Source of the DNA: Planctomycetota bacterium
Lineage (GTDB): Bacteria; Planctomycetota; Phycisphaerae; WQYP01
DNA: 64,000 bases
Assembly: GCA_021790385.1 (NCBI GenBank)
Contig: JAJYDW010000007.1
Span: 10,483 to 74,482, forward strand
Reading direction: 5' to 3'
Part shown: in pieces, positions 41,948-62,889 of the stretch
Position numbering within the stretch: position 1 is the stretch's first letter
Layout of the letters: each line of letters begins with the position of its first letter
The notes under the pieces: generated by a model
Database searches by the model: none
Seen by the model: the letters and a program-made list of their open reading frames with translations, nothing else
Told to the model about the DNA's origin: nothing
Made by a program: the position numbers and the translations under genes

Positions 41948-41965
41948 CCGGAAGCCCGCACCGCC

Positions 41966-45888: not shown

Positions 45889-46797
45889 ATGAGTAACTTA
45901 CGAAACAAATGTATCGCCATGGCCGTTGGTACCGGTATGCTCGGTGGCATTGCCACCGCTGGAGCCACGGAAATTCCGGCCGGAAACCTGTTTTATCAAA
46001 ATGGGGCCGCCACGGCACCGAATGTATCAACCGTTATCAATAATCCCCAAAATATGAGCGGCGGGTCTTGGGTTGGCGGGACCAATTACTGGGTTGGCGG
46101 TAACAGTCCGGTGCTGGACGGCAGCGTTTCCACAATATGGAACGCCGGCACATTTAGCGGCGGCGGTATGTGCAATGTCGCCATCTCACAGGGTTCGTAC
46201 GATAGCAGCACCTCAACTTTTACATCGGTACCGTTTGGCGCTATCGCAACGATACGTATCTGGGCGGAAAATTATATCAATAGCGACGGCAGCACATGGA
46301 GTTCGATGCCCCAAGTGGTCGCGGTAGGATATACCACCAACAGCAACCTCACTTCGACCATTCGCAACGGCTACTCATTCAATAGCGGCACGGCGGGTAC
46401 CCTGCCGCCAACTTGGAGCACCATGGCCACGATTTCTTCTGTCAATGGCGGCACACCGGGCACACCTTTCGATCCGACGGATTACCCGACCGCTTCGGGT
46501 TGGGTGGCCGGGGATTTTTCGCAAGGCACGGTTACCGGTTTAAATAGTGGACACAGCACGCTGGCCTACATGGATCTGACTGTGAATATTCCCGCTGGTG
46601 CTACCAGTGTCATGATCTCGTTTGGACAGGACAGCGGCATCGCCACTGCACCCAGCCCCAGCTATTACAGCCCCGGCGGCCTGGCAATTGCCGATATCCA
46701 GGCCTATGCTCCGACCATTCCCGAACCCGCTTCGTTGGGTCTATTGGCCTTTGGCGGTCTGGGGCTGTTGTTGCTCAAGCGTCGTAAAACGGCTTGA
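45889..46797 (+). CDS. PEP-CTERM sorting-domain secreted protein (third copy in the window)
   Basis: Signal peptide MSNLRNKCIAMAVGTGMLGGIATAGA. C-terminal PTIPEPASLGLLAFGGLGLLLLKRRKTA. Confidence 0.75.
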   Translation: MSNLRNKCIAMAVGTGMLGGIATAGATEIPAGNLFYQNGAATAPNVSTVINNPQNMSGGSWVGGTNYWVGGNSPVLDGSVSTIWNAGTFSGGGMCNVAISQGSYDSSTSTFTSVPFGAIATIRIWAENYINSDGSTWSSMPQVVAVGYTTNSNLTSTIRNGYSFNSGTAGTLPPTWSTMATISSVNGGTPGTPFDPTDYPTASGWVAGDFSQGTVTGLNSGHSTLAYMDLTVNIPAGATSVMISFGQDSGIATAPSPSYYSPGGLAIADIQAYAPTIPEPASLGLLAFGGLGLLLLKRRKTA

Positions 46798-46874
46798 GGT
46801 CGCCGCAGTAACTGGCAGCGGGGCACCCCTGCCGCTGCACCTGACGATTTCTCCGGCAGCAGAAAGGAGTAGTC

Positions 46875-47864
46875 ATGAATCCGATAAAGCGACGACAAAC
46901 TAAGGAGTTTGCATTCAGTTCTACGGCTGCCCATTTTTGGGGGTCAATGCACGATCGCAGACCCAGAGCATTTACCCTGGTGGAACTGCTGGTGGTCATT
47001 TCCATCATTGCCATTCTTATCTCCTTGCTGCTTCCCGCCCTGGCCAAGGCCCGCTTTTGGGCCAACGTGACGGTATGCGCCAACAACCAGCGGCAGATTT
47101 ACCTGGCCACCGCCATGTACGCCAACGACAATCTGGGGTTCATGCCGGGCTGTGATGCCTTTCAAAGCGTGAGTGGGGGAACCTACGCCACATCCTACGG
47201 CGGCTATCCGTGGGAATTTCAGGATTATTGGTACAGCAATCCCATCTTACCTTCAGGCGTGGTGTGGTCGCAAACAGTACGCTGGTACGGGGTGGGAGTT
47301 TTGATTGGTCAAAAGTACATGCCCCCCACCAATGCCGTGGAATGTCCGGATTTTGCCATTTCACCACAAGCCCAGATCGGCCAGAAATGGAGCAACTACA
47401 CGCAAAATGGCGTGTTTCTGCTGCCGAAGGAATACAACACCGCAGCCGCCGCCGGCGACAGCCCCGAACAGATCGCCAACGCCTGCTTCGGACAAGGCTC
47501 TTACGTGCTTGATACCGAACCGTATTACAACACCTTTGATCCCGGCAATGAATCCCATGGCCGTATCGGACTGCCCGGCACCGAGGGTGGATGGTGGTCG
47601 CCGGGCGGATTGCTCAAAGTGCCGCACATTACTGCGCTGATTATGTGTCTCACGACCTATGCTGATATCAACCCGCAACCGGCGACCATCACGCACGAGA
47701 TGAAGGGCGTCAACTGTACGTATATTGACGGGCACACCCAGTGGCTGCCCATCCACGCGGCGACTTGGAGTTATTTCAATTCCATCGGTTTCCCCGCCAG
47801 TTCCGGCGGCGACATGCGCGGTGCCTATACCTTTTTCCCGTGGGCCACGCAGCAAGGATGGTAA
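46875..47864 (+). CDS. Prepilin-type N-terminal methylation domain protein of the DUF1559 (H-X9-DG) family, second copy
   Basis: RBS AAAGGAG then [30 protein letters not shown]-terminal [13 protein letters not shown]9-DG. Confidence 0.8.
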
Positions 47865-47917
47865 AAGCTTCCAGACGGACGGAGCCAGTGGGTGCAAAGT
47901 GAAAAATAAAAACTGGT

Positions 47918-48005: not shown

Positions 48006-48103
48006 TGGCAACTTGGCCTTTAATCAAAACTGAAAATATTGTGGCATCACCATCTGGCCCATGGCCCGGCTTTGGCCGGCTCTTTCGTGCAGAGGTATGA
48101 ATT

Positions 48104-51100
48104 TTGTCCAGCGACAACCGCCCCAATCGCCGCAGTTTTATCAAAACCATGGGCTTGGCCGCCGCCGCGCTGACAGTGGATGCCGCAAGTGGGCGCGGGG
48201 CCAAATTGAACTTTGACCATTTGCCGAAGTTTGCCTCCGGCACGCCGGAATACCCCACACCCTTTCTGGCCATCGCCAGAACCCCGAATCTGATTGCCGC
48301 GCCCCAGGGCGGCGGCATGAATATTGAAAGTGATGTCGGATTTTTATCCGGCTTTTCCGGATTTGTGGACAAGACCACCGGACGCTTCGGCTATCCCGGC
48401 TACAACAATTACACCAACGCCAATTTCTCCTTTGATAACGACAAGCTCGTCATCGTAGCCCATGTGCCTTATCCCGTGATCGGCGATCTGCACCAAGACG
48501 ACACCTTTGAAGTGCTTATTCAACCCCGCGGGCCGCACTCCACCGGATTTGTTTATCGCGTCACCGGCAACGCCTTCGGCCGGTGGCATGCAGATCTTGA
48601 CGAACCGATCATCGGCCAATTTCATCAACCCTGGCATTCCCTCATCCACTATGGTGCCATGCTCTGGAATCCGTCCGGCCTGTGGATGGCCAGCGTGGCT
48701 ATCCCCTGGAAATCGTTGGGAGGCCGGCCCGCCAATGGGGCCGTATGGGGTGTGCAGTTTGCACTGCGTTATCGCCAGCCCACCATCGTCGCTTATCTAA
48801 GCCCCACCGATAAATTCACCGACACCAGGCGTTTCGCCCGCATTCGCTTCGATTTCAACCGCCGCATCAATTACCGTCCCCATTGGCTCAGTGAAGAAAT
48901 GGACACCGGCCACTTTATGGTGCAGTATCTGCTGGCCAACGGCGGCACCAAGCCGGCCACCGTGGAAATGAAAGTGGCCCTCTACAAAGCCGGCCACGAA
49001 TTTGCCCATGCCCAGCTCGAAAAAACCGCACCGCCAGGCTCCACCTATTGGGCAGATAACACCGGCACCAACATGATTTCTCTAAATTCTGAACCTGCCA
49101 CACCTGCCCAGCGCAACACCGTGGCCCATCTGACTGCCTATGACCGCACTAAAAATGCTCTTATCTATGATCAATGGGTGCCTTATTGGCAATTCAAACC
49201 CGGCGAAAATGACTGGATTAAACAGCGCCTGGCGCGACAATTCAGCTTTAACATCGGGCCATATCCATCCATGGGTCTGATCGACTATGCCGTGGATGCA
49301 CGCTCCCTCAAGGAAGTGACACCCACCGCGACCGAGTTTACCTGCGCGGTTCTCGCCGACGGAAAACCCGTCTTGCACCAACGCCGACCGCTGCCTGCCG
49401 ACGGACAAATTACCGGCAGCGTCAATCTGGGTGCCTTTACGGATCGCGTTACCTACGATCTGCAGGCCGACATTCGCGACTCCGAAGGCACCGTGCTCAA
49501 CCAGCGCAGCCGGTCGTTTACCCGTCGTGTGATGCCTTTTGAAAAGGCGCCTCCGGCCGGCGTCGGTGATCATGTATTCCCGCCGTTCACCCCGCCGCGA
49601 ATTCACGGCACCGCTGTTTCCTGCCTGCTTCGCACCTACGTGCATGGCACCAACGGCCTGCTGGAGCAGATCTTCGCCGCCGAACGCAACTTACTCATTC
49701 GCCCCGCCGCTTTTACCGTCGTGCTCGATAACTGGCAGTCTCTGGTATTAACCGCAGGCAGTCCCCACTTGCTACCCCATGGTCTAGGCTCCGTCGATTA
49801 CACCCAGACCTTTCAGGGCGGCGGTGTGGAACTGCTTTTGCACGGAAATTTAGATTACGACGGCTTTTACCATTTTACCGCCACGCTTAGTCCGCAAAGC
49901 CGGCCGGTCACCATTCGTGAATTGCGTTTGCAAATTCCCCTAAGCCCAGCGCATGCTACACTTATTGATGCGGCCGTCACGTGGATGTACCCTGGCTGGG
50001 AAAAGGCACTGGGTTTTTTAAGCCACGGGCACGGCCGAATCTGGGATTCCCACACCCTGCCCATGCAAATGAACAATCGCGTCAGCAATATGCCTCCTTA
50101 TATCTGGGTTGGCGATGACGATCGCGGACTATGCTATTCCTGCCCCTCCGATGAAGGCACACATAACACTCCCGATTTACCTGCTGCGGCATTGGACCGT
50201 GCTGACAACGCTGTCACCTTAAGCATTTGGATGGTCAATCGCACATTGCATCTTGAAAAGCCCCGCCGCTTTCAGTTTGCCCTCCAGGCCAGCCCCTTTA
50301 AGCCGGTAGCCGCCAATGGACGGTTGTGGCGCGATCAGACTACCGCCGCTGCCACTTATAAAAATGGCCTGACCTTCACCGACTTTTGGGATCCGGCATC
50401 CTATCCTACCTATGGCCGCTGGCTGACCCTGGATTATCTCAAAAAACAGGTCGCCGTCGACGGCTGCGACCGCACCGGCCTCGAAGCCTCCGCTCTTTCC
50501 GAATGCGCCGGAACTCCCGAATATCGCCAGTTCTATTACGAATGGGGCAGTGCGATGGACGAATATCAGCAAGTCGTTCCACCCGTCCCCGCCGGGATTC
50601 TCCCACGCTTCAAAGCCAGTGGGGTACGGGCAAATCCATTCGTGATGATCGAAGCTTTTTCCAACACCACCAAAACCAACCGCGATTATCGCGCATGGTG
50701 GCTCTCCGAGGCAGCCAAACACGCTGGCGTCTCATTTGTGTACCAGGACAATCCTACCTGGGTTTTCGCCGACCGCCCTCAGCCGGAATATGGGTATAAA
50801 CGCCCGGATAGCGGCATTGAACCCACCAGCATGATTTGGAAGTCCCGTGATGTTCTCAAACGGTTCTTTCAGGCCGTGGCCGAAGCCGGCCAACCTTCCC
50901 AGCCAGGAATCTGGCCCAACATGATTACCCCGGCAGCGCCTGGCCGATCTTTCTGTGGTAAAGCCCTGGATGGGGAATATACTGATTCTAATAACCTGCG
51001 TATGGGAATGATGCGCGTGCATCTATCCAAACAGTGGGGGTTTGTAGTCGACTGGCTTTGCCAGCCGCCGGCCAGTGCCGGAGCTCAAATTGGCACCACT

Positions 51101-52111
51101 CGCGATTACTGGCGAGCCTTGTTCAGCCAGCTTTGTCTTCTGGATGTTACCAATTTTTCTCGACCGGACACCGCCGAAATCTATAGGCTCTGGTGGAATG
51201 CCCTGGATGTATTCTGGCTCGACGACCCGAGTGTGCACTGGCATCCGTATTACCGCAATCCCACTTTGGCCCAGGCTGAACCTGCCGACACCATCCTGGT
51301 TTCCACCTACACTGCTACCGGACGTTTATTGGCAATCGTTTCCAACTGCGGCCATCAGGACGCCATTGCCACGGTTCGGTTTAAGGATCTGGCTGCATGG
51401 GAGGCCGCTGGTCTGACCCATTTTTATGATGCCGAAACTGCGGAAGAAATCTCGGTTAAAAACGGTCAGTTGCGACTGTTTGTGGCCCGGAAAAATTACC
51501 GCCTGATCATTGGTTTCCGGGGACCGTGGAAGTTTGCCGCTAAAAACCGCCTCCCCCATCCCAACCAAATCCTCACCAACTCGTCCCTGGACCCGCAGGC
51601 CACCATTGGGGAAATTTGTCGCCATCTTCTGACCGCACGCACCCTGCCACCCATGCAGCATGCAGACCAGTTACTGCTGCAATGGGCACAGGAGATTCTC
51701 AAGGAACTTCCCGCAAGTTCTCCGGATATTGCTTATTTTGACGCCAAGGCCATGGCCGACATCCACCTCGGTAACCTGGAAGTTCGTTGTTCCGTGTTCG
51801 TTAACCGTCGCAGTGGTTTCATGCTGGTCGGCTTTTATAACGGCACTGACCAGCACCGGGTGCTTAGTCCCCGGATTTATGACCAGATTGCCGCCAAAGT
51901 CGGCAAACCGGGTTACAATTTTATTTATGATGCCATCGGCGGTCAGTCGGAATGGTCGGAAATTGATCTTCCCGCGCATAGTGGGCGCTGGGAGGTGGCC
52001 TATCAGGATGATCCCGATTACTACGGTGCCCGCCGCGGCGTTTTCAAAATCGGCACGTTGATGTCCAACATCCTGACGGCAGTTGAGGAAAATAAAAAGA
52101 CTCTGCAGTAA
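48104..52111 (+). CDS. Giant (1335 aa) Tat-signal exported protein with an N-terminal CBM9-like (DOMON-like) carbohydrate-binding module and a large domain of unknown function; putative novel CAZyme, paralog of the next gene
   Basis: Twin-arginine signal NRRSFIKTMGLAAAALTVDAAS. CBM9-like segment DNDKLVIVAHVPYPVIGDLHQDDTFEVLIQP...WGVQFALRY. Shares the VSFVYQDNPTWVF / MNGYWWDNGTFWT block with the 52167 gene. The ORF-track start is TTG; an in-frame ATG a few codons upstream is possible. Confidence 0.65.
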   Translation: MSSDNRPNRRSFIKTMGLAAAALTVDAASGRGAKLNFDHLPKFASGTPEYPTPFLAIARTPNLIAAPQGGGMNIESDVGFLSGFSGFVDKTTGRFGYPGYNNYTNANFSFDNDKLVIVAHVPYPVIGDLHQDDTFEVLIQPRGPHSTGFVYRVTGNAFGRWHADLDEPIIGQFHQPWHSLIHYGAMLWNPSGLWMASVAIPWKSLGGRPANGAVWGVQFALRYRQPTIVAYLSPTDKFTDTRRFARIRFDFNRRINYRPHWLSEEMDTGHFMVQYLLANGGTKPATVEMKVALYKAGHEFAHAQLEKTAPPGSTYWADNTGTNMISLNSEPATPAQRNTVAHLTAYDRTKNALIYDQWVPYWQFKPGENDWIKQRLARQFSFNIGPYPSMGLIDYAVDARSLKEVTPTATEFTCAVLADGKPVLHQRRPLPADGQITGSVNLGAFTDRVTYDLQADIRDSEGTVLNQRSRSFTRRVMPFEKAPPAGVGDHVFPPFTPPRIHGTAVSCLLRTYVHGTNGLLEQIFAAERNLLIRPAAFTVVLDNWQSLVLTAGSPHLLPHGLGSVDYTQTFQGGGVELLLHGNLDYDGFYHFTATLSPQSRPVTIRELRLQIPLSPAHATLIDAAVTWMYPGWEKALGFLSHGHGRIWDSHTLPMQMNNRVSNMPPYIWVGDDDRGLCYSCPSDEGTHNTPDLPAAALDRADNAVTLSIWMVNRTLHLEKPRRFQFALQASPFKPVAANGRLWRDQTTAAATYKNGLTFTDFWDPASYPTYGRWLTLDYLKKQVAVDGCDRTGLEASALSECAGTPEYRQFYYEWGSAMDEYQQVVPPVPAGILPRFKASGVRANPFVMIEAFSNTTKTNRDYRAWWLSEAAKHAGVSFVYQDNPTWVFADRPQPEYGYKRPDSGIEPTSMIWKSRDVLKRFFQAVAEAGQPSQPGIWPNMITPAAPGRSFCGKALDGEYTDSNNLRMGMMRVHLSKQWGFVVDWLCQPPASAGAQIGTTRDYWRALFSQLCLLDVTNFSRPDTAEIYRLWWNALDVFWLDDPSVHWHPYYRNPTLAQAEPADTILVSTYTATGRLLAIVSNCGHQDAIATVRFKDLAAWEAAGLTHFYDAETAEEISVKNGQLRLFVARKNYRLIIGFRGPWKFAAKNRLPHPNQILTNSSLDPQATIGEICRHLLTARTLPPMQHADQLLLQWAQEILKELPASSPDIAYFDAKAMADIHLGNLEVRCSVFVNRRSGFMLVGFYNGTDQHRVLSPRIYDQIAAKVGKPGYNFIYDAIGGQSEWSEIDLPAHSGRWEVAYQDDPDYYGARRGVFKIGTLMSNILTAVEENKKTLQ

Positions 52112-52166
52112 CTTTTACCGGATATGGTTTATTGCTTCCTTCACTTTTTTACAACAAGGATTCGTT

Positions 52167-55100
52167 ATGAAACACTCTAGCGTTAGCATCCCAATCCTCA
52201 TCCCGGAAAACCCGTACACGCCGCGATCCGTTTTACTGCTGTGCTTAGCCTTATTGAGCGCACTGGTTTTGGTGGTAAACCCATGCACTACCGCCGCGGC
52301 CCCGGCCAACCCCATCCCCAAACTGCCTCTGCTGCGCATACCGGAACTGACCACCCCCCCCGTGATTACCGGTCGCATCAGCCCCGATCATGTAACCGGA
52401 CAATGGGTGCATGCTGCTCGCCTGACCGGCCTTCAAAATTTCGGCATGGGTACGCTGCCCCCATCCAAACTCCAACCCACCTGGTGGCTGGCGTACGATA
52501 AAACTCATCTGTATCTGGCTTCTTACTTTCCCGCGTATCCAAAAGGTACCATCGTTGCTCAGGTCAAACACGGCGATGAGGGTGGTCTAAACCCGCATGC
52601 CGGTGATATTCTCGGCGATGACCACGTTGAAATACAAATTTGTGATCTGCCCAAACGATCCGAAGCCGTCACCAAGTATTTTTACAAGATCATGACCAAT
52701 CCTTATGCCGCGGTGGTGGATCAACGTATTGAGTGGTCGGTTGGCTGGATGGGTTATGAATGGCAATCAGGTGCTATCGTCAAGTGCCATACCACCAGAA
52801 ATGGCTGGTCCATGGAAATGGCCGTTCCCCTGAAAAGCATGAATCATCTGGTGGCTCCACCCAACAACACTCAATGGTTTATACAATTGGCCGATGCTAA
52901 CGGTGAATCTCCATATTACGCCTGGCAGCCGGTGCTGTTTACCGATTGGGATCACATGGGATCCATCGTGTTTGATTCCCACGCACCTGTGTTTCAACTG
53001 CTGAGCCTGGGCCATGTCCAGCATGGGCAGATGGATGTACAAGCCGCCATCAACGTGCCCCACGGACAACCACCCGTACAAATGCGGGTACGCGTGCTGG
53101 GTGCCGGCGGAAAGATATTATTCGTCCGCACCCGATCCGTGCCGGCCAACGGAAAGCCCACCGCACTGCGTTTTCACAAAAACGGACTGCCTGTAGGTGG
53201 CCACGGCCAGACCATGGATATTCTGGCCTGGCAAGGCCACAAAATCATCTATCGCGACTCCATGCCGTTTGACACTATCACCGCCGCCGATCTCAAAAAC
53301 ATGTACACCGCTATTGCCGCCAATCGGCACAACCTCGGCCAGCCCAATCTTTCCTCCTGTTATTATCAGTCTTATCATACGCTCACGGCGCGCTGTGATG
53401 TGAATATTCTCGAAATCAATCCTACGATCCGCACGGCTAAAATTCTTCGTGCCAGTATTGTACGTGTTGGCCATAAAAAGCCACTGGTCAGTGCTGATGG
53501 CGTTATCCAGCCGGATGGCCTGGGACGAATTCAAGTTTCCACGGGCAAATTGCCGCTCGGCAAATATCAGGTTATCACGCAGATCATAGGAAACCGCGGT
53601 CAGGTACTCGCGTCACGCATCGATCCCTTCGCAGTCAAACACTTCCCATGGGAGCACAACAAGCTCGGTGAAGAGCACATCGTTGCGGCTCCGTTCACAC
53701 CGGTGAAAGTGCTGGGATCTACGCTGCATGTCTGGGATCGGGCTTATCATTTCGCAGCAACAGCATTACCGAGTTCCATTATCAGCCTGGGCCGGAACAT
53801 GCTTGCCGCTCCCATCACTCTCACCGGAACTATTGATGGCAAAAAAATTCCGCTGGTAAGTATCGGCCGACCTGCCTGGACGCACGTTTCCGGCTACAGT
53901 GCCACCGTAACCGGTCATGGCCAGATAGGCCCTCACGTGCATGTTACCATTAAGGCCAAAACCGAATATGACGGTACCACGTTTTACACTCTAACCCTTA
54001 CGCCTCATGGCTTGGCCAAGATAAACGAATTATCCATGGTCATTCCCCTGCATAAACTCATGAACTGGGAGGCCATGCGCAGCAGTGGACGCGATATGCC
54101 CTATGGTACCATTGGTGAGGGCACGCCGGATGGCGTATTCTGGAAATCCTCCGAACTGCCTGCCGCAGCATTTATTCACGACACCTTCCTGCCCTACTGC
54201 GTGATTTCCGACGGTCAGCGAGCTTTGTCCTGGGCGGCAGATTCAGATCAAGGCTGGATGGTGAGTAACCACCGGGCATCTTTTCTGCTGGAGAAGCACG
54301 CCAACCGTCAAATCTGGATGCACGTGCGGTTTGTCGATACGCCATCGGTCCTCAAAACTGCCCATACCATTCACTTCATGCTCACCGCCATGCCCATGAA
54401 ACCCAAGCCCGCAGATTGGCGCTATCGCATGTGGGGCATGCCTAACGCCGCCTTTGGCTACATGTCTGGTTGGCAAGGCAGCAACATGTGGGCTTATGGT
54501 TGCGGCCCCACTATCAGCTTTAGAAATCAGAATCAATTCGAAATCCTACGCCATTTACTTTCCGCCGATCGCCAAAGGGTGCGGCTGGCCGCCGAAAGCG
54601 TGCCCGGGCCCAAGTATCCGCCCATGAGCATGTGGTACGTTTCCGCCAACACCTGGGGCTACGCCATGCCTGAATACCCCACTTACAGCGGAGAATGGAC
54701 CGGCATGACCCATCCTCCCATTAATCCACAGCGCAGCTACATCAATTTCAAAAGTCCCTTCGGTGTCTGGAGCACCGCTCGCGAACAAACCCGCGGCGGC
54801 ATGGACCTTATTCAATCCGCCATCGACTGCCGCGTCTACGACTTTGACCAAGAGCAGAAAAAGGCCGGCATGAACGGCTACTGGTGGGATAACGGCACTT
54901 TCTGGACTTCCGGCAACCTTATCAAGGGCACCGCTTACATCCGCAACGGCCATATCCAGGGCATTTATAACATCACCCTGATGCGCCAGATGCTCAAGCG
55001 CATGGCAGTGGTTTCACAACTCAACCACATCACCCCCTTCCAAAGCATGTATGCCCATGGAGAAATTGGTCCTCTGGCTGGTTTTGTTAACTGGCTCTGG

Positions 55101-55727
55101 GCCATTGAAGGGCCTTGGTACCTCAACAGCGACAAGGTGGACCTGGTGCAAAATATCCAAGGAGGTCTCAACGGTATCCGCACAATCCTACAGACGTATC
55201 AGGGCTTGCCCATTTCCATGGATAACAACACGCAGGATCAGTCCAGCAATGACAACGCCAATCCGTGGCAAACACGCTCCTGCCTTGGTGTGGCTCTGCT
55301 TTTTGATGTAGGTGACGGCTGGAATGGTGGCATCAACGGATTCTGTCAGCACAAGCTGGTTCAAGCCCTGAACCGCTTTGACTATTTCAACCATCGTGTA
55401 AAGTGGGTTCCTTACTGGCGAACGGCCAAACTGGTGAATGTTCACGGCGGCCACATTGTCACCACTCTCTACATCCGCAAACTGCGCGGACAGACTCCCG
55501 GCATCATGCTGGTGCTTTTTAATGATGGCCACCATACGGCCACCGTCAGTGTGCAGGCCAATACCAATAAACTGCTCGGTCTGGCCCGCAAATATACCAC
55601 CCTGCATGACCTGGAGAATTGGAGTGCCAACCCTGTTCCCATGCTCGCTGGGCGCTGGGGGGGCATTACCATACCCCGCCACGATTTTCGCCTGATGCTG
55701 CTGGGACCACGGGCTGATGGTAACTAA
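52167..55727 (+). CDS. Giant (about 1185 aa) signal-peptide exported protein with a CBM9-like N-terminal module; paralog of the preceding gene
   Basis: Signal/TM MKHSSVSIPILIPENPYTPRSVLLLCLALLSALVLVV. CBM9-like TWWLAYDKTHLYLASYFPA...GDDHVEIQICD...WFIQLADANG. Start at the internal ATG (the ORF track begins at 52083). Confidence 0.65.
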   Translation: MKHSSVSIPILIPENPYTPRSVLLLCLALLSALVLVVNPCTTAAAPANPIPKLPLLRIPELTTPPVITGRISPDHVTGQWVHAARLTGLQNFGMGTLPPSKLQPTWWLAYDKTHLYLASYFPAYPKGTIVAQVKHGDEGGLNPHAGDILGDDHVEIQICDLPKRSEAVTKYFYKIMTNPYAAVVDQRIEWSVGWMGYEWQSGAIVKCHTTRNGWSMEMAVPLKSMNHLVAPPNNTQWFIQLADANGESPYYAWQPVLFTDWDHMGSIVFDSHAPVFQLLSLGHVQHGQMDVQAAINVPHGQPPVQMRVRVLGAGGKILFVRTRSVPANGKPTALRFHKNGLPVGGHGQTMDILAWQGHKIIYRDSMPFDTITAADLKNMYTAIAANRHNLGQPNLSSCYYQSYHTLTARCDVNILEINPTIRTAKILRASIVRVGHKKPLVSADGVIQPDGLGRIQVSTGKLPLGKYQVITQIIGNRGQVLASRIDPFAVKHFPWEHNKLGEEHIVAAPFTPVKVLGSTLHVWDRAYHFAATALPSSIISLGRNMLAAPITLTGTIDGKKIPLVSIGRPAWTHVSGYSATVTGHGQIGPHVHVTIKAKTEYDGTTFYTLTLTPHGLAKINELSMVIPLHKLMNWEAMRSSGRDMPYGTIGEGTPDGVFWKSSELPAAAFIHDTFLPYCVISDGQRALSWAADSDQGWMVSNHRASFLLEKHANRQIWMHVRFVDTPSVLKTAHTIHFMLTAMPMKPKPADWRYRMWGMPNAAFGYMSGWQGSNMWAYGCGPTISFRNQNQFEILRHLLSADRQRVRLAAESVPGPKYPPMSMWYVSANTWGYAMPEYPTYSGEWTGMTHPPINPQRSYINFKSPFGVWSTAREQTRGGMDLIQSAIDCRVYDFDQEQKKAGMNGYWWDNGTFWTSGNLIKGTAYIRNGHIQGIYNITLMRQMLKRMAVVSQLNHITPFQSMYAHGEIGPLAGFVNWLWAIEGPWYLNSDKVDLVQNIQGGLNGIRTILQTYQGLPISMDNNTQDQSSNDNANPWQTRSCLGVALLFDVGDGWNGGINGFCQHKLVQALNRFDYFNHRVKWVPYWRTAKLVNVHGGHIVTTLYIRKLRGQTPGIMLVLFNDGHHTATVSVQANTNKLLGLARKYTTLHDLENWSANPVPMLAGRWGGITIPRHDFRLMLLGPRADGN

Positions 55728-55773: not shown

Positions 55774-57816
55774 ATGGCTTCCAAACTTGATCATAATACC
55801 ACTCTGCGCGTGGAGTTAAATCCCCGGATCGGCACAGTGGATCTGTACAACACCGCCACCGGCGACGGATGGTACGGCCTGCAATTCTTTCTGCGTTGCG
55901 GCGCGAGGGAATATCGCCCCCGGTTACTCAAGTCTGCCAGACACCAAAAAGGTAAGACCACCTGGCAGGTGGAGTTGGCTCCCGGCCTGCGCGTTTATTT
56001 TGCAGCCATGACTTCCCCTGCCGGCAGTGGAATATGGCTTTGTCCGCGTTTGGTCAACCGTTCTGACCGCACCTTTCAGTTTACTTCGTACGGTATGGCC
56101 ACGGCCTCTGGCGCTATAGGACCACAACTTCACCACACCAGTTTGCCCGTATTTGCCCACAGCGAAAATCTGCGTTATGAAGACCTGCCCGTGTCCAGGC
56201 AAACCTTCCCCTTCATCCGTCCTTTGCCGGAGCAAGGCCGATGGTTTGGCCGCCAGGGAATCGGACCAATTCCCGCGATGGTTTTAGGCAGACGCGATCA
56301 CAATCGCTGGCTTGTGGAAGGTTCAGCTTCCCAGGACCGAGCCACCGCATCCTGGCATTTGTCCTTGCCCACCCAGTCCGACCGCATGGTGGATTATTGC
56401 AGTGAATACATGTGGAATGGCCAATCGCAGGAGGCTCTGGCCGCCGGTCAGACTATGGATCTCGAATCCTGCCTGTATCAGATTATCAACGGCGAGCCAG
56501 ACCAATTGTATGAATCATACACCACGGAGTTATCGGCAATCCATGGCCGGCGCTTCGCCGGTACCACCAGCCGCCTGGCCCATGAGCCGGTTTACTGCAC
56601 CTGGAACTATGGGATTTACACCAACATCACCGAAGATGTCTGCATCAAGAGAATTAAAATCGCCGGCCAGTTGCAAAACGGTGGCATTTTTCAACTGGAC
56701 CATGGCTATCAGCCACCGCACGCACCCCACGCATCCTGGGGCTATCTGGATGCCTATTATCCTGACGCTACCCACACCTGGGATACGGCACGCTTTCCCG
56801 GCGGACCACGCCGGATTGTAAAGGAATCGCAACGTCATGGCCTTACGCCCGCCATCTGGTGGACCCCGCGATTGGATATCGGCGGGCCTATCGCCACCGA
56901 CCACCCGGATTGGATCGCCATCAATCGCCACGGCCGACCGATTGAACACGTTGGTGATTTACATCCGGATTATTCCGTCCCCGCCGTCCGCGACTTTATC
57001 CAGCGCACCATTCGCACCATCATCCACGATTGGGGCTTTGCGGGCATCAAGCTCGATTTTTTTTCTTGGGCCTTTGATGCTCCCGACCTGGCCTATCGCT
57101 ACGGTGGAACGAGCGTGCAATGGCGTCGCTGGCTGCTGGGCCTGATTCGCCGGGAATTGGGACCGCGTGGCTACTTCCTCTATTGTATCTCCTGCCCGCT
57201 TGGCAATCCTTTTCTGGCTCTGGACGGTTGTGATTCCTTCCGTGCCGGAACGGACATCGACCGCGGTCACTGGGCTACGCATGTCGCCAATTGCAGTTGG
57301 TTCCTGGCGTCGTTTCCGGCCTGTGGCCGGCGTACCTGGTTTACCGACATGGACAGCTTCATGGGTTCGCCGGAATTTCCTGCAAACGAGCGCCGCTTCC
57401 GCTGCGCCATGGGCTACCTGACCTCCGGCATGATGGATTTTTCAGGTCCTATTGAACAACTGGACCAGGCCGCATTACGGGATTACCGGCGACTCTGCCA
57501 ACGCTGTGATCAGGGCGGCAAGGTTTTGGTGCCGGATCGGGAAGCCTTTTATGGCCGGCCGTTGCCTGCCATCCTCATGCGTCCTCATGCCGCCGATAGC
57601 CGCACTCGCCGTCGCTTCGGCGTGCAGGCCACAATTGGCCTGTTTAACTGGGACACCCACCCGCGGGCCATGAGTGTGGCGCTGGATACCTGGTGCCGCA
57701 AAGGCTTTAGACTTCGCGTGCAGGACTTCTGGACCAGTCGCCCGGTGAGGGTTGATAACGGTCTGCTGACCGCCAACTTACTGCCCCGCCACCATTTGCT
57801 TGTGGATATTATGTAA
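55774..57816 (+). CDS. GH36-like (clan GH-D, melibiase-type) glycoside hydrolase, putative alpha-galactosidase or related
   Basis: TIM-barrel region CTWNYGIY...GIFQLDHGYQ...HGLTPAIWWTP...HPDWIAINRHG...DLHPDYSVPAVRDFI...WGFAGIKLDFF parallels the GH36 motifs (LDDGW, GLWFEP, HPDW, KWDMN). No signal peptide is evident. Confidence 0.55.
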   Translation: MASKLDHNTTLRVELNPRIGTVDLYNTATGDGWYGLQFFLRCGAREYRPRLLKSARHQKGKTTWQVELAPGLRVYFAAMTSPAGSGIWLCPRLVNRSDRTFQFTSYGMATASGAIGPQLHHTSLPVFAHSENLRYEDLPVSRQTFPFIRPLPEQGRWFGRQGIGPIPAMVLGRRDHNRWLVEGSASQDRATASWHLSLPTQSDRMVDYCSEYMWNGQSQEALAAGQTMDLESCLYQIINGEPDQLYESYTTELSAIHGRRFAGTTSRLAHEPVYCTWNYGIYTNITEDVCIKRIKIAGQLQNGGIFQLDHGYQPPHAPHASWGYLDAYYPDATHTWDTARFPGGPRRIVKESQRHGLTPAIWWTPRLDIGGPIATDHPDWIAINRHGRPIEHVGDLHPDYSVPAVRDFIQRTIRTIIHDWGFAGIKLDFFSWAFDAPDLAYRYGGTSVQWRRWLLGLIRRELGPRGYFLYCISCPLGNPFLALDGCDSFRAGTDIDRGHWATHVANCSWFLASFPACGRRTWFTDMDSFMGSPEFPANERRFRCAMGYLTSGMMDFSGPIEQLDQAALRDYRRLCQRCDQGGKVLVPDREAFYGRPLPAILMRPHAADSRTRRRFGVQATIGLFNWDTHPRAMSVALDTWCRKGFRLRVQDFWTSRPVRVDNGLLTANLLPRHHLLVDIM

Positions 57817-57829
57817 ATAAAGGGAACCG

Positions 57830-60409
57830 ATGCCTCGTACCATAGTCACCCATTGGCAACACGCCCCCACCGGAGCCGCCGGCATCTGTGATGCCCATTG
57901 CCGGTACCCCGGTGTGCCGGTGGCCATAGACATGCAAAAACACGTCGGCCGCAACCGTATCATTTACAATGGTCCCGCTGCGGTTTGGTCTGAAGGCTTG
58001 CCCATGGGTAATGGCGATTTAGCCGCCATGGCTTTTCAACCTGCCGGCTCCCTGTGCTGGGGACTCACCAAATCAGATGTTCGTGATCTGCGACATCCTG
58101 TGGTTCCCTGGTGCGATCATCCCACCATGCGTCGTATCTTTGAAAAGGAACACAACCATTTACTCACCGATCAGATCAACGAAGAAGAATGGGATTTTCG
58201 CACCTATTTTCCCTGCTTTCTCCCCGCGGGAGGCCTATGGCTTAGCGCCCTGCAAGAAGGCGAACTGGCCGTTCAACGGCAGGTGCTGGATTTATATCAG
58301 GCCCAGCACAACATGGAGTTGGCTGGTGGTGGCCAGGTTACCAGCTTCGTTTATGCCGATGCCAATGTACTCGTCGTTCGGTTGACCGGTATGAAAGGGA
58401 TGCAACTGCGTTTGCGATTCGGCCCTGAGGCCATTGAGCCAGGCCGTGCCGGTGAGCCTGATTCTCCCACGGCACAATTGATCCGCAAGGAAATTTTCCG
58501 CCGTCAATTACGCCAGTGGCAACCCGATCAGGGGCGATTACAGGTGGACTATGCCGATGGCCATCGTACACTTCTGATGCTGCAAATTCGCGGAGCCACG
58601 CTTGACTATCGTGCATCCGATGCCGAGGAGGCCACGGTGGACTTGCAGGCCGACACCGTAGATATTCTGATGACCATTGCCACATCACGCCAGGGTGCAT
58701 TTTTGCAGCGCCGCGCCTCCCTCCTGCTGGAAACCGCGTGGCAGCGCAACGTGGACCGGTTGCTTGCCGATCATCACACCTGCTGGCATGAACGCTGGAG
58801 CCGTTCCGCAGTACAACTGCCCCAACGCATTTTGGAAAGCCTTTGGTGCTACGCCATATACACTATGGCCTCCAGCAGTCGAGCCGCGTATCCAGCCCCG
58901 CTCATGTCCGCCTGGCATTTACGCCTGGATCAACCCTACGGCGGTGATTTTCATAACAACATCAATTCGCAGATGTGCTATTGGCCCCTCCCCGCGGCCA
59001 ACCATGCAGATATCATGGAACCTTTTCTCAAGCATTTCTGGTCGGTCATGCCGGAAATGGAAATGGAGACCAGGCGTGTCTGGAATCTACCCGGCATCAA
59101 GGTACCCTTTGCCAGCATTGGTCGAGGTATCGATCATTGGGGCGTTGGATACTGGCGATACGAGCTTTTTGTTTCAGCATGGCTCGCCCAGATCGCCTGG
59201 TGGCATTATGAATTCACCGGTGATCGCAAGATGCTTTTGCAATTCGGTTGGCCGCTGATTCAGGCTGTGGCTGAATTTTACCTGGCCTATCTCGATGTCG
59301 ATCCGGCCACCGGCAGACTTTCGCTGCCACTGACCAAACTCTGCGAAGACACCATGTTCAACGTAGTTCCTGCGCAACGGCTGGTCCGTGATGCCGGCCT
59401 GGACCTGACCGCTGTCCACAGTCATCTGCGCGATGCTGCACAGGCGGCCGAGGTAGTCGGTCAACCCCAGGATGCCGCCCGTTACCGCGCTACCATCAAC
59501 AAACTCAATCCGCTGCCGGTTACCGACGGCCAATTTGCCATTGCATCCGGAATGACCATGGACGTACCTGTTTCCCATCCTTATCAGTTAGCGGCTATTT
59601 ATCCGGCCGGCCTTGTAACCCAGCTTGGACCTGCCTCTTTGTTGCCTGTTGCGCAGCGCACCCTGGCTAACGTTTGGAGATGTTCCTCGCGGGTCAGCAT
59701 CGGTCAGCCCGATACCGAACGGCTTCGCTGGAATGATGATCTCTCTATGGGTTGGATCGGCACGGCCAGAGCCTGGATGAGCGATGGAGATGGCGCTCTT
59801 GATGCCTTGCTTAATGGATGGGTCACCAGCACACTTAAAACCAACGGCTTTTTAGCCGAGCAAGCACGCCAGCCGGGCGAACGCTCCACCATGGGCTGGA
59901 TGCAGAATCAGCTTTGCGGACTTGCCAACGGCATCAATGAAATGCTCCTGCAAAGTCATTCCGGTATCATCCAGATTTTTCCCGCATTACCTTCCACCTG
60001 GACCGATGTCGGCTTTGTACACCTGCTGGCCAGGCCTGGCGTACGAGTTTCCGCCCGGCGCTGCGGGGGTAACACTCAATGGGTGGTGCTTTCCGCGGAA
60101 AATAAAGCGGCGGTATGCCTCCGCAACCCCTGGCCGGGGCAAATAGTTGATTCGCTGGCCGTGGTAGACACGTGCTTTCCAGACCGGCTAATGCCCATCG
60201 TCTGCAACGATGCCGGGCATCTGCTGCTGACCCTGCTGCCACATCAGCCGCTGATGGTAGTGCCCAAGGAACACCTTCCCGTCGAAACTCTAATTGAGGC
60301 TCCAGAGGATGATGGAACCGCTCCCTGGTCCTTTACCGGACCCATTCCGCTGCGCCACGAGGATCCGCCGCCGGACGGCACCTGGACGAGCTGGTGGGGC
60401 AAGCCGTAG
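57830..60409 (+). CDS. GH95-like glycoside hydrolase (putative alpha-L-fucosidase or alpha-L-galactosidase), 859 aa
   Basis: N-terminal AAVWSEGLPMGNGDLAAMAF...LCWGLTKSDVRD matches the GH95 N-terminal beta-sandwich signature (PA..W.EALPIGNG.LGAMVFG). The size fits GH95 enzymes. Family assignment is tentative. Confidence 0.45.
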   Translation: MPRTIVTHWQHAPTGAAGICDAHCRYPGVPVAIDMQKHVGRNRIIYNGPAAVWSEGLPMGNGDLAAMAFQPAGSLCWGLTKSDVRDLRHPVVPWCDHPTMRRIFEKEHNHLLTDQINEEEWDFRTYFPCFLPAGGLWLSALQEGELAVQRQVLDLYQAQHNMELAGGGQVTSFVYADANVLVVRLTGMKGMQLRLRFGPEAIEPGRAGEPDSPTAQLIRKEIFRRQLRQWQPDQGRLQVDYADGHRTLLMLQIRGATLDYRASDAEEATVDLQADTVDILMTIATSRQGAFLQRRASLLLETAWQRNVDRLLADHHTCWHERWSRSAVQLPQRILESLWCYAIYTMASSSRAAYPAPLMSAWHLRLDQPYGGDFHNNINSQMCYWPLPAANHADIMEPFLKHFWSVMPEMEMETRRVWNLPGIKVPFASIGRGIDHWGVGYWRYELFVSAWLAQIAWWHYEFTGDRKMLLQFGWPLIQAVAEFYLAYLDVDPATGRLSLPLTKLCEDTMFNVVPAQRLVRDAGLDLTAVHSHLRDAAQAAEVVGQPQDAARYRATINKLNPLPVTDGQFAIASGMTMDVPVSHPYQLAAIYPAGLVTQLGPASLLPVAQRTLANVWRCSSRVSIGQPDTERLRWNDDLSMGWIGTARAWMSDGDGALDALLNGWVTSTLKTNGFLAEQARQPGERSTMGWMQNQLCGLANGINEMLLQSHSGIIQIFPALPSTWTDVGFVHLLARPGVRVSARRCGGNTQWVVLSAENKAAVCLRNPWPGQIVDSLAVVDTCFPDRLMPIVCNDAGHLLLTLLPHQPLMVVPKEHLPVETLIEAPEDDGTAPWSFTGPIPLRHEDPPPDGTWTSWWGKP

Positions 60410-60528
60410 TTTGCCGGGCCAGGCTCATCAGCCAAGCCCTCTTGAACAAAGGCTTCCGCCTGCCGCATTTCATCGGAAGCCTGTCGCGCACAAAATGCTG
60501 CACCGATTATGAAAGCGATTAAAATTTT

Positions 60529-61851
60529 ATGCCATCGAATCAGCCCACATCTTCCCCTCAGCCAGCTCTAACCCCACAGAAATTCAGCGATCTCCGCTAT
60601 GGCATGATTGTTCATTATGGCCTTTACAGCCTGCTGGGGCGAGGCGAATGGGCTCTCAACCGTGAACGAATCAACCTGGAGGAGTATCGCTCCCTGACGG
60701 CGCAGTTCACCGCCAAAAATTTTGACGCAGATGTTCTTTGCAGACTGGCCGTTTCCGCCGGCATGCGTTATCTGGTATTCACCACCATGCACATCGACGG
60801 CTTTCGATTGTACAACACGGTCCATAGCCCCTTCACATCGATGCACGCGGCCTGTCATCGAGATTTAACCGCCGAGGTTATTGCTGCCGCCCGCCGCCAC
60901 GGCCTCTACATCGGCCTGTATCACAGCCTCACCAATCTGATGGATCAACCCGATGGTGCAGACGCTCTGGAAAATCCCGCCGCCTACCGCACCTTCATCG
61001 CCCGCACCCATCAGCGCCTGGAAGAACTGGTGCGGTGCTACACCCCCATAGATATCCTCTGGTACGATGGCTGGTGGCCCTTCAACGACCGAGGCTGGCA
61101 AGCCCAGACCATGAATGCTTTGGTTCGATCCATCCAGCCCCACCTCATCGTCAACGGCCGCAATGGCCTGCCCGGTGACTTTTCCACTCCGGAAGGCCAT
61201 TTGTCGGCACCCCGTCCGTGGCGGCCATGGGAGGCCTGCATGACTCTCAACAACAGTTGGGGCTACCATCAGGGCGACCATGAATGGAAGACGCCCGGCC
61301 AGGTTGTGGACATGCTCGCCACTGTTGCTGCCGATCACGGCAATCTCCTGTTAAACGTCGGACCGCGTGGTGACGGCTCTATTCCCCAGCCAACCATTGA
61401 AGTCCTGGAAACAGTTGGTCAATGGCTTGAGCGTTGCGGCGAATGCATCTTTCATACGGACCGGTTTACCTACGGCCTGCGGGAGCGCGGCGACCACCGC
61501 GGAGATTGGCATCATCATGGCCCCATGACTGCCCGCGGCAATAGCCTTTATCTGCTGTTGCGCCGGTGGCCTGGACGAGAAATGGCCCTCGGCGGCTTGC
61601 AATCTCGCGTGCTCAAGGCCACCCTGCTGGGCATACCTGACTCTGCCAAAGCTGGGCCTCTACAGGTAGTTCAAACCCCCGACCGTCTGGCCATTCGTGG
61701 TTTGCCCGACAATCCACCCGATCCGGTCTGTACGGTACTCGCTTTGGAATGTGACCATCCACCGGTGCTGAATTTAACCGGTGGCATGCGGGTACCGCGG
61801 GTACCGCATCCTCCGTACGATCCGTGTCCGTCCGATTTGGCCCATAGCTGA
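60529..61851 (+). CDS. Alpha-L-fucosidase, glycoside hydrolase family 29
   Basis: KFSDLRYGMIVHYGLYSLLGRGEW (GH29 HWG.YS..EW motif). ILWYDGWWP (nucleophile region). C-terminal beta-sandwich domain. Confidence 0.85.
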   Translation: MPSNQPTSSPQPALTPQKFSDLRYGMIVHYGLYSLLGRGEWALNRERINLEEYRSLTAQFTAKNFDADVLCRLAVSAGMRYLVFTTMHIDGFRLYNTVHSPFTSMHAACHRDLTAEVIAAARRHGLYIGLYHSLTNLMDQPDGADALENPAAYRTFIARTHQRLEELVRCYTPIDILWYDGWWPFNDRGWQAQTMNALVRSIQPHLIVNGRNGLPGDFSTPEGHLSAPRPWRPWEACMTLNNSWGYHQGDHEWKTPGQVVDMLATVAADHGNLLLNVGPRGDGSIPQPTIEVLETVGQWLERCGECIFHTDRFTYGLRERGDHRGDWHHHGPMTARGNSLYLLLRRWPGREMALGGLQSRVLKATLLGIPDSAKAGPLQVVQTPDRLAIRGLPDNPPDPVCTVLALECDHPPVLNLTGGMRVPRVPHPPYDPCPSDLAHS

Positions 61852-61881
61852 TATGATTCCAATACAAAAAAGGAGCCTTCC

Positions 61882-62889
61882 ATGTCTACGTCAATCACTT
61901 CCCCGATCCATCGCCCGGCGCAATGGTCTACACGTGCGTTAGTCGCCATCATCCTGGTGCTGCTGTATGCTTTTACCATGACCAGCCCCTGTCAGGCAGC
62001 GGGAATTCCAGTACATAGTGGCCAAACAATTGCCTTTCTCGGCGATTCTATCACCCAGTTTGGCTGGGACCAGCGCAGCGGATATGTTCGGCTGGTCATG
62101 CTTGGCCTGAAGGTCAACGGCATTCATGCCACGGCCATTCCTGCCGGAGTCAGTGGCAACACCTCCAACGATATGCTCTCGCGATTGCAAACGGATGTGC
62201 TTAACAAAAAGCCGAACTGGATGCTGGTAAGCTGCGGCGTCAATGATGTCTGGCATATCCCCGGCGGAGTTTCTCTCCCCAATTTCAAAATGAACATGAC
62301 CGCAATCGTCAGGCGGGCTGAGAACCGGGGGATCAAAGTCATGATTCTCACCGCCACCATGATTGGAGAAAACGCCAACAATCCATTTAACCGAAAGCTG
62401 ATCGCCTATAACGCCTTTCTTCGGCGACTCGCGGCGCGCCATCATTGCCTGCTGGCCGACGTCGGTGCAGACATGCGAAATCAAGTGAAAAAGGAAATTG
62501 CCAAAGGACGCCAACCCGGGTGCCTGTTCACTGTGGATGGCGTCCATCCCAACCCGCGAGGGAATATGATGATGGCCGCCGACATCCTCCGGGCCTTTGG
62601 CTGCAACCATACCCAGTTGTCCACAGCTCGCCGCGCCTGGCTCAACGTTCCTTGGAAACTATCCGTCGTGTATCAAGTACGAGTAACCCGACAGCTTACC
62701 TTACGCCAATTTTTACGCCTGCAAAAACTGGGACGCAAAAATACGTCCGCAGCCATCTGGGATCAGGTTCAGTCCCGGTTTAACGATTGGCTTAACGCCC
62801 GGCCCACGGTGCAACGGTTTGATAATCGCATCCAACACCTATTTGACAGCTATATCACCCACAAGCTTGCCCCGATCAGCCACCGCTAA
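61882..62889 (+). CDS. SGNH/GDSL-family hydrolase (esterase or deacetylase), secreted
   Basis: Signal peptide. FLGDSIT (block I Ser), GVSGNTS (block II), CGVNDV (block III) and a DGVHP block V. Confidence 0.8.
   Translation: MSTSITSPIHRPAQWSTRALVAIILVLLYAFTMTSPCQAAGIPVHSGQTIAFLGDSITQFGWDQRSGYVRLVMLGLKVNGIHATAIPAGVSGNTSNDMLSRLQTDVLNKKPNWMLVSCGVNDVWHIPGGVSLPNFKMNMTAIVRRAENRGIKVMILTATMIGENANNPFNRKLIAYNAFLRRLAARHHCLLADVGADMRNQVKKEIAKGRQPGCLFTVDGVHPNPRGNMMMAADILRAFGCNHTQLSTARRAWLNVPWKLSVVYQVRVTRQLTLRQFLRLQKLGRKNTSAAIWDQVQSRFNDWLNARPTVQRFDNRIQHLFDSYITHKLAPISHR

Follow-up and report, generated by a model that had tools for sequence, protein, structure and literature searches.

Among the closest described counterparts of the gene cluster discussed here are the fucoidan polysaccharide-utilisation loci (PULs) of the marine planctomycetal strains 892 and 913, which are operon-like, lack SusC and SusD, combine exo-fucosidases of the glycoside hydrolase (GH) families GH29 and GH95 with esterases and an MFS transporter, and are dominated by S1 sulfatases accompanied by GH107, GH168 and GH187 enzymes (PMC11685898). 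The Sus-type PULs of Bacteroidota follow a logic of surface binding, extracellular depolymerisation, import and intracellular exo-glycosidases, with SusC and SusD among their components and the final exo-enzymes in the periplasm. The cluster described here lies at positions 45889–62889 of a 64,000-nucleotide stretch of contig JAJYDW010000007.1 (assembly GCA_021790385.1, Planctomycetota, Phycisphaerae), hereafter the window. It belongs to the same phylum as the fucoidan PULs and shares their GH29 and GH95 enzymes, but two giant exported proteins and a GH36-like enzyme stand in place of the sulfatases and endo-fucanases (the endo-fucanase families were not specifically searched). It follows the Sus-type logic, but with a PEP-CTERM protein and a prepilin-like protein instead of SusC and SusD, and with final exo-enzymes that are predicted to be cytoplasmic rather than periplasmic. 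On balance, we favour the reading that this is a conserved planctomycetal polysaccharide-utilisation operon whose substrate is a non-sulfated glycan bearing O-acetyl and alpha-L-fucosyl groups, probably with alpha-galactosidic linkages as well, and that the exported giants are candidate GHs.

Eight open reading frames (ORFs) occupy the + strand at 45889–62889, separated by intergenic gaps of 13–239 nt, with domain calls from Pfam and NCBIfam profile searches. All eight match the co-directional gene list of a first-pass annotation made from the sequence, which also placed a convergent gene, called there a sugar-phosphate isomerase, at the end:

45889..46797, +, PEP-CTERM-tagged protein of 302 aa (PF07589, E 1e-4; TIGR02595, E 3.7e-5), with a body of ~250 aa that matches no family
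46875..47864, +, prepilin-type (pseudopilin-like) protein of 329 aa (PF07963 N_methyl, E 1.9e-7), DUF1559-like by motif only
48104..52111, +, giant 1, 1335 aa, with an RRSFIK signal, a CBM9-like module, Ig-like domains, a PF19543 beta-sandwich and a barrel
52167..55727, +, giant 2, 1186 aa, with a Sec-type signal, a CBM9-like module, two Ig-like domains, a supersandwich, a barrel and a beta-sandwich
55774..57816, +, GH36-like (clan GH-D) enzyme of 680 aa, predicted to be cytoplasmic, called from an ortholog profile against GH36 entries of the PDB
57830..60409, +, GH95 enzyme (alpha-1,2-L-fucosidase or alpha-L-galactosidase family) of 859 aa (PF22124, E 1e-31), no signal peptide
60529..61851, +, GH29 alpha-L-fucosidase of 440 aa (PF01120, E 2.3e-70), no signal peptide
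61882..62889, +, SGNH/GDSL esterase of 335 aa (PF13472, E 1.7e-23), predicted to be exported, a candidate glycan O-acetylesterase
62982..63872, -, convergent, xylose-isomerase-like TIM-barrel protein of 296 aa (AP_endonuc_2, PF01261, E 1.5e-25)

The start of the PEP-CTERM gene at 45889 is an ATG internal to a GTG ORF that opens at 45865, and the start of giant 2 at 52167 is backed by the 100% identity of its 1186-aa product to the database protein P0024. Hydrophobic N-terminal segments are found on the PEP-CTERM protein, the prepilin, both giants and the SGNH esterase and are absent from the 680-aa protein, GH95 and GH29; the same localisation pattern is seen in the orthologs. GC content is even across the whole window. 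An Rfam scan of 44–64 kb returned nothing, and predicted promoters and terminators were no more frequent than in shuffled sequence.

The cluster holds up as a real and conserved operon-like unit, and it is more than a chance arrangement, because homologs in about eight separate lineages are surrounded by the same set of genes. Nine window proteins were compared by tblastn with 41 loci of relatives (designated by L-numbers), and the called genes of these loci were considered as well. A module of giant 1, optionally giant 2, the 680-aa protein, GH95 and an MFS or SSF transporter, with or without GH29, SGNH, prepilin and PEP-CTERM genes, is present in L001, L003, L010, L012 to L015, L028, L032, L033, L035 and L037. 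Three of the layouts read as follows:

L001 (Tepidisphaerales), SGNH, prepilin and PEP-CTERM genes divergent from giant 1, giant 2, the 680-aa protein, GH95 and MFS
L003, GH38, giant 1, a 681-aa protein, GH95 and MFS
L010 and L011, PEP-CTERM-like protein, prepilin, a short giant 1, a redoxin, giant 2, a 681-aa protein, GH95, SSF and GH29

Another of these loci, L037, lies on a contig binned as Candidatus Limnocylindrales (Chloroflexota) and carries giant 1, a giant-2-like gene, the 680-aa protein, GH29 and a prepilin N_methyl gene. Either the module was transferred horizontally, or the contig is planctomycetal and was binned wrongly.

The exo-enzyme set originally read from the sequence, namely GH29, GH95, a GH36-like enzyme and an SGNH esterase, proved to be right, and profile searches confirm the two fucosidase-family calls in particular. 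In addition to PF22124, the GH95 protein matches the N-domain PF14498 (E 8e-10) and the C-domain PF21307 (E 2.7e-6) and aligns with GH95 entries of the PDB down to E 4.4e-26, while the GH29 protein matches PDB 6gn6 at E 4.5e-60. The SGNH esterase, whose PF13472 match likewise upholds the initial call, contains both FLGDSITQ (the GDS block) and DGVHPN (the D-x-x-H block). The 680-aa protein is a distant GH36 member. As a single sequence it gives sub-threshold matches to Melibiase (19.6 bits, cut-off 27) and GH31, and its assignment rests on a profile of ten orthologs from syntenic loci, which matches the GH36 structures 3mi6 (E 8.5e-15) and 6lcj (E 1.6e-13), and 1zy9, 5m0x and 8k1a at about 2e-7. 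Both catalytic Asp residues are aligned and invariant in the orthologs: K426-L-D428 (D428 at nt 57055–57057) aligns with the K-W/I-D nucleophile motif of GH36, and R490-x-x-x-D494 (RAGTD; D494 at nt 57253–57255) aligns with RIGPD of 1zy9, the Asp of which we take to be D387 of TmGalA (an offset of 12 residues from a tag), the acid/base.

The conserved exo-set combines alpha-L-fucosidases with a GH36-type enzyme and at least one acetylesterase, which points to an acetylated glycan with alpha-L-fucose and probably alpha-galactose (or beta-L-arabinopyranose). The first-pass annotation had suggested fucoidan or an algal or mucin glycan, in which case the giants would act as the endo-fucanase for the backbone. 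The phylum fits such a locus, and GH29, GH95 and an esterase form the exo-set assumed for fucoidan trimming, but planctomycetal fucoidan PULs hold 25–38 S1 sulfatases as well as GH107, GH168 and GH187 endo-fucanases (PMC11685898), whereas no sulfatase was found among the large window ORFs scanned with Pfam or among the annotated neighbours of the modules in L001, L003, L010 and L029. Furthermore, the conserved partner of the giants is GH36-like and not a fucoidan enzyme. The relatives' genomes are metagenome-assembled genomes, among them ones from peat (SPRUCE) and Danish soil (MFD), and there is one metagenome contig from wood. Given the lack of a sulfatase in the scanned window ORFs and the peat and soil origin of the relatives, the proposal of fucoidan or a marine algal glycan was dropped, and we regard a locus for sulfated fucan, or for mucin, as very unlikely.

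The two giants were described at first pass as paralogs with a shared central block, and this is borne out. BLASTP aligns them at 25% identity over 561 aa (E 8e-19), hhalign aligns their family profiles over 988 columns (probability 100%, E 1.2e-43), and the YQDNPTW and WWDNGTFW motifs are both present and align to each other. Close homologs are few, with 23 and 10 clusters at 90% identity for the two giants, and the superfamily is large: a hidden Markov model search of 1.84 billion representatives returned 5687 proteins at E≤1e-3, 1085 of them at E≤1e-30, mostly 1100–1400 aa in length. A further homolog search with the combined alignment found no new members. The domains of the two giants, both encoded on the + strand, are arranged as follows:

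Giant 1, CBM9-like module at aa ~105–250, Ig-like domains, PF19543 beta-sandwich at aa 486–682, barrel at aa ~735–1045, beta-sandwich and a C-terminal extension of ~190 aa
Giant 2, N-terminal part, CBM9-like module at aa 55–270, two Ig-like domains and a supersandwich at aa ~490–743 (nt 53634–54395)
Giant 2, C-terminal part, (beta/alpha)8-type barrel at aa 744–1075 (nt 54396–55391) and a beta-sandwich (nt 55392–55724)

The N-terminal CBM9-like module had also been seen in the first reading, and the profiles bear it out weakly, as CBM9_1 matches 8 of 30 close family members (best E 1.2e-5) and a 119-sequence profile matches the CBM9-like PDB entry 4jpq at E 6.7e-5. Binding-type accessory domains (LamG_3, CBM9, PA14, CBM4_9) occur in many of 68 distinct superfamily members sampled. 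In L010 (8438–10000) and L011 (5539–7287), an ORF with AhpC-TSA, redoxin and thioredoxin domains lies between the giants. It has 51% tblastn identity to aa 54–391 of giant 2, and therefore the CBM9-like and Ig module is apparently fused to a thiol-redox domain in this ORF.

The description of giant 1 as Tat-exported is weak. The RRSFIK motif is present, but the Pfam TAT_signal profile (PF10518) reaches 17.1 bits where 22.7 are required, and the sampled family members lack a convincing twin-arginine motif: a scan of 20 other giant-1-family members flagged one, with a weak RRLVL match, and those sampled have mostly ordinary hydrophobic N-termini. One short-form ortholog in L010 carries RRKF. Tat export was rejected as a family feature, given the sub-threshold profile score and a motif that is lineage-specific.

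The catalytic part of the giants fits no known GH family, as had been suspected, with no match in Pfam, NCBIfam or PDB sequences. In phmmer searches of the PDB with each giant, and in searches with three profiles, solely the CBM9-like and Ig-like parts found matches (hits to flagellin and Cycle were noise). No NCBIfam model matches the giants, no Pfam GH family is matched by the giants or their sampled relatives, and hhalign comparison of the barrel profile with E. coli YicI, the GH31 of the window and the 680-aa protein (as a single sequence and as the ortholog profile) gave probabilities of ≤3%.

Structural modelling places this part of the giants near a group of alpha-glycosidases. An AlphaFold (AF2) model of giant 2 aa 490–1186, built from 80 diverse sequences, has a pLDDT of 92.9 and a pTM of 0.94 and comprises a beta-supersandwich, a (beta/alpha)8-type barrel and a C-terminal beta-sandwich. 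A full-length AF2 model from 30 sequences reached a pLDDT of 75 with a poorly resolved barrel, and Foldseek with that model returned LacZ entries only (TM 0.15), which is uninformative. The best full-length Foldseek match of the giant 2 model is the GH36 alpha-galactosidase 8k1a (E 2e-10), and the other top matches include the GH97 alpha-galactosidase 5e1q, the GH31 sulfoquinovosidase 5oht, MYORG 7qqh, the GH129 enzyme NagBb 5wzn and the beta-L-arabinopyranosidase 5xfm, all with probability 1.0, E values from 2e-10 to 1e-6 and TM scores of 0.3–0.4. GH36, GH31, GH97 and GH129 alpha-glycosidases share the three-part core of supersandwich, barrel and beta-sandwich with the giants. However, they show no sequence or profile similarity to the giants, which are twice as long, bear CBM9-like and Ig-like modules and are exported. 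On these models, the giants look like exported multi-domain GH candidates of an uncharacterised family, and the most fitting description is that of candidate founders of a so far undescribed GH family with a GH36/31/97-like fold.

Across the alignment of 80 sequences at ~20% identity, the Asp at D908 of giant 2 (D882 of giant 1) is 100% conserved and the Glu at E981 (E958) is 99% conserved. Conservation is also high at D887/D861 (97%), E843/E813 (96%) and the giant 2 residues R940, R945 and R1037 (93–99%), while D1047/D1014 is conserved at 84% and is otherwise mostly Glu. D908 ends the hydrophobic strand GYWWD (model residues 415–419), and, an intervening hairpin left aside, E981 sits two strands further along the model. 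The invariant Asp, at the end of G-Y-W-W-D-N, resembles the nucleophile motifs of these alpha-glycosidases, K-W-D-M-N and W-x-D-M-N-E. The putative acid/base of the giants is a Glu, in contrast to the Asp of the GH36/31/97/129-type enzymes compared. The proposed catalytic residues are:

Proposed nucleophile, + strand, D908 of giant 2 at nt 54888–54890 (WWDN) and D882 of giant 1 at nt 50747–50749 (YQDN), from conservation
Proposed acid/base, + strand, E981 of giant 2 at nt 55107–55109 and E958 of giant 1 at nt 50975–50977, from conservation

The two candidates are 73–76 residues apart, a distance similar to that between nucleophile and acid/base in GH31, GH36 and GH66. Since D908 and E981 are conserved with this spacing, we infer that the giants may use a retaining mechanism with an Asp nucleophile (D908/D882) and a Glu acid/base (E981/E958). 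Both paralogs keep all of the conserved residues, so both are probably active. The same residues bear on the idea that the giants are non-catalytic pseudo-enzymes that bind glycans or act as scaffolds at the surface, with the depolymerase encoded elsewhere. Such a role would suit their several binding-type modules (CBM9-like, Ig-like), their position beside surface-sorting genes and a family in which no activity has been demonstrated. Yet an Asp kept at 100% and a Glu at 99% despite ~20% identity, within a confidently modelled barrel, form the pattern of an active site, every conserved acidic residue is retained in both paralogs, and the cluster holds no other candidate depolymerase, which makes a purely binding role improbable.

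In contrast to the fold, the Pfam label of the giants points to GH123. PF19543 ("GH123_N", formerly DUF6067) matches the giants at E 9.8e-10 and 2.5e-9, above the 22-bit cut-off, as well as all 68 of the distinct relatives sampled, and it is the sole Pfam contact with the core of the superfamily. Taken at its word, this label would make the giants GH123-type beta-N-acetylgalactosaminidases with substrate-assisted catalysis, and an annotation resource uses PF19543 as a GH123 signature (PMC13355591). The match, however, is confined to profile positions ~293–519 of 969, or ~317–519 for the two giants, which correspond to a non-catalytic beta-sandwich. GH123 is defined by DUF4091 together with a consecutive catalytic DE motif (PMC11087588). 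DUF4091 (PF13320) was matched by neither giant and by none of the 68 relatives scanned, and the 80-sequence alignment contains no conserved adjacent DE or DD pair in the barrel, where the conserved acidic residues stand isolated (E843, D887, D908-N, E981-G, D1047). GH123 chains of the PDB were not matched by phmmer or by three profile searches, the 119-sequence profile included, and GH123 structures are absent from the top 50 Foldseek matches of the giant 2 model. The GH123 enzymes NgaP, CpNga123 and BvGH123 share with the giants the N-terminal-type beta-sandwich modelled as PF19543, but they have DUF4091 and the DE dyad, of which the giants have neither, and the barrel of the giants is different. 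Lacking DUF4091, the DE motif and similarity to any solved GH123, the giants were rejected as GH123 members, a reading to which we attach next to no credence. The outcome that the first-pass annotation had named as refuting it, a well-characterised family for the giants or a failure of the GH29 and GH95 calls, therefore did not arise in these profile searches.

The literature on this domain is sparse: no papers were retrieved for DUF6067 or GH123_N, and one incidental mention was retrieved for PF19543 and IPR045711. A described protein of similar build is DSSM_1, a five-domain deep-sea protein that was retrieved by a GH123 domain search and left uncharacterised (Sumida et al., 2024; PMC11087588). 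Its resemblance to GH123 is limited to an N-terminal-like beta-sandwich, its barrel is GH66-like (3WNM), and BLAST gave no PDB match (PMC11087588). This description fits the architecture of the giants, and homology is presumed. DSSM_1 comes from the deep sea, whereas the giants come from peat and soil lineages.

The fold of the giants also bears on whether the operon targets fucosylated glycans of plants, for instance fucogalactoxyloglucan or the side chains of pectin, with the giants cutting beta-glucan or pectic backbones or releasing whole side chains. Xyloglucan loci (the XyGULs of Cellvibrio and Xanthomonas) typically contain GH95, an acetylesterase and an MFS transporter, PDB 7kmq is among the matches of the GH95 protein, L037 carries GH39 and a pectate-lyase-like protein, and the habitats are rich in plant litter. 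On the other hand, the conserved module has no beta-galactosidase, bona fide GH31 alpha-xylosidase, beta-glucosidase or known endo-glucanase, its conserved partner aligns with GH36 alpha-galactosidases and not with alpha-xylosidases, and the fold matches of the giants are alpha-glycosidases, so that we consider this specific role unlikely, though worth keeping in view. More broadly, plant fucosylated glycans or bacterial exopolysaccharides are possible substrates. Fungal heterogalactans and fucogalactans occur in mushrooms (PMC6257751), and a substrate of this kind, though speculation, would fit both the habitat and the alpha-galacto-type fold matches.

For the favoured reading of a utilisation operon for a non-sulfated fucosylated glycan, localisation and synteny suggest a pathway in four steps. 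First, the PEP-CTERM and pseudopilin-like proteins would capture or present the substrate at the cell surface. Second, the giants and the SGNH esterase would depolymerise and de-acetylate the polymer outside the cytoplasm. Third, small fucosylated oligosaccharides would be imported, with the MFS or SSF symporter of orthologous clusters as the candidate carrier. Fourth, the signal-less GH95, GH29 and GH36-like enzymes would cut the oligosaccharides to monosaccharides in the cytoplasm. The most likely division of labour is that the exported giants release oligosaccharides and the cytoplasmic exo-enzymes finish them.

Several observations weigh against this reading. The window's own copy of the cluster has no transporter gene. 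Giant-1 homologs at 41–45% identity (Thermoguttaceae, Pirellulales) mostly lie outside this gene context, and among the distant homologs a giant-2-like neighbour is kept in L018 and L023 only. Other loci add GH38 (L003), GH39 and a pectate-lyase-like protein (L037) or a SASA esterase (L028), contents that fit several glycans. As for the giants themselves, the family has no enzymatically characterised member, the barrel has no sequence or profile link to GH31, GH36 or any PDB chain, the putative catalytic assignments are drawn only from conservation and secondary-structure position, and the TM scores are modest.

The pair of genes at the head of the cluster was examined as a possible surface accessory. 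The PEP-CTERM call holds, with PF07589 at 22.7 bits (cut-off 20.7), a TIGR02595 match, and a C-terminus, IPEPASLGLLAFGGLGLLLLKRRKTA, that contains the PEP motif, the transmembrane helix and the basic tail. No exosortase turned up among the Pfam-scanned ORFs of the window. At aa ~82–95, the PEP-CTERM protein holds LDGSVSTIWNAG, and its ortholog at L001:2963–3832 has LDGDLDTAW, both of which resemble the DGxxxTxW of discoidin/CBM32. A discoidin/CBM32 domain was not confirmed by Pfam, the sole trace being CBM_AftD at E 0.095 in one homolog. For the second gene, originally called a DUF1559 pseudopilin-like protein, the prepilin N-terminus stands, but PF07596 was not reported at E≤0.01; the C-terminus has an H-x10-DGH motif. 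Its paralog in the window, at 26517–27662, scores 22.2 bits with PF07596 against a cut-off of 23.3.

In relatives, the pair is orthologous in L001 (47% identity for the PEP-CTERM protein and 51% for the prepilin) and is also present in L010, L028, L032 and L033. PEP-CTERM-tagged proteins occupy the same position in L028, L029 and L032, as does a 44%-identical homolog in L033, the C-terminal tag of which falls outside the coverage. The recurrence of the pair at 21.3–27.7 kb of the window, noted at first pass, is also found, within a second PUL-like locus at 13408–29635 that is directed at alpha-glucan. On its + strand this locus carries two PEP-CTERM proteins, the amylase listed below, an N_methyl/DUF1559 protein and an SSF symporter; its enzymes and regulator are:

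13408–16425, -, GH31
16362–19118, -, GH13
19185–20393, -, LacI regulator
23293–26385, +, GH13-like amylase of 1030 aa, predicted to be exported, matching PDB amylases at E 1.5e-9

The same layout of PEP-CTERM protein, big exported enzyme and prepilin in the alpha-glucan locus supports a recurring surface accessory, and the earlier idea of an accessory that travels with such loci agrees with its presence in L001, L010, L028, L032, L033 and the alpha-glucan locus. When the two pairs of the window are compared, their likeness is confined to the sorting and pilin termini, and the protein bodies are therefore locus-specific. The association is qualified by the great number of DUF1559-like genes in the phylum.

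A relative of the window with 85% nucleotide identity, L029, extends the picture beyond the convergent TIM-barrel gene, as its xylose-isomerase-like gene is the last of a convergent operon:

L029:6525–13872, operon of a PEP-CTERM protein (336 aa), a prepilin (351 aa), a third giant-1-type paralog, a Gfo/Idh/MocA oxidoreductase and a xylose-isomerase-like TIM-barrel protein

The third paralog is a short form of 1022 aa with 45% identity that lacks the CBM9 module. By analogy, the counterpart of this operon, and with it a third giant module, would lie just beyond window position 64000. The pairing of an oxidoreductase with a TIM-barrel protein recalls oxidative (3-keto) pathways of glycoside cleavage.

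Upstream of the cluster, positions 31813–44005 hold a co-directional block of very large envelope-type proteins, and two genes stand between this block and the glycan cluster (44030–45638):

31813–44005, envelope block of a 1048-aa LptC/LptA-like protein, a 1658-aa protein with an FtsX-like permease domain, a 671-aa protein with no Pfam match and a 679-aa protein with DUF6785 and DUF6784
44030–45100, -, family-4 uracil-DNA glycosylase (UDG) with an unassigned N-terminal extension of ~160 aa
45045–45638, -, DUF3467 ORF, the end of which overlaps the start of the UDG ORF by ~55 nt

A bolder extension of the favoured reading, which we judge to be quite unlikely as a whole, would have the giants found a new GH family, its members numbering in the thousands across Planctomycetota, Verrucomicrobiota and Lentisphaerota, and acting as retaining endo-alpha-glycanases that cut a non-sulfated fucosylated alpha-galactan (e.g., fungal fucogalactan or heterogalactan) to importable oligosaccharides. 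In this extension, the PEP-CTERM and pseudopilin pair would capture a specific substrate at the surface, as the equivalent of SusD/E in Planctomycetota; the like layout on the alpha-amylase locus of the window fits such a role.

New GH families are found regularly, and the present finding is solid and useful rather than startling. The superfamily of the giants comprises more than 5000 representative clusters and is labelled in databases solely via a non-catalytic domain, for which the name GH123_N is misleading. Since proteins with PF19543 but with neither DUF4091 nor the DE motif number in the thousands, pipelines that rely on PF19543 will assign GH123 too often in metagenomes rich in Planctomycetota. 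If the barrel is a distinct and probably catalytic domain, for which candidate residues are now named, experiments could reach a large share of the carbohydrate metabolism of Planctomycetota and Verrucomicrobiota in peat and soil that at present lacks annotation. Additionally, in a phylum without SusC/D, the conserved pairing of PEP-CTERM and pseudopilin-like genes could serve to recognise PUL-like loci in genomes, and it gives the DUF1559 family, which is hugely expanded, a function that can be tested.

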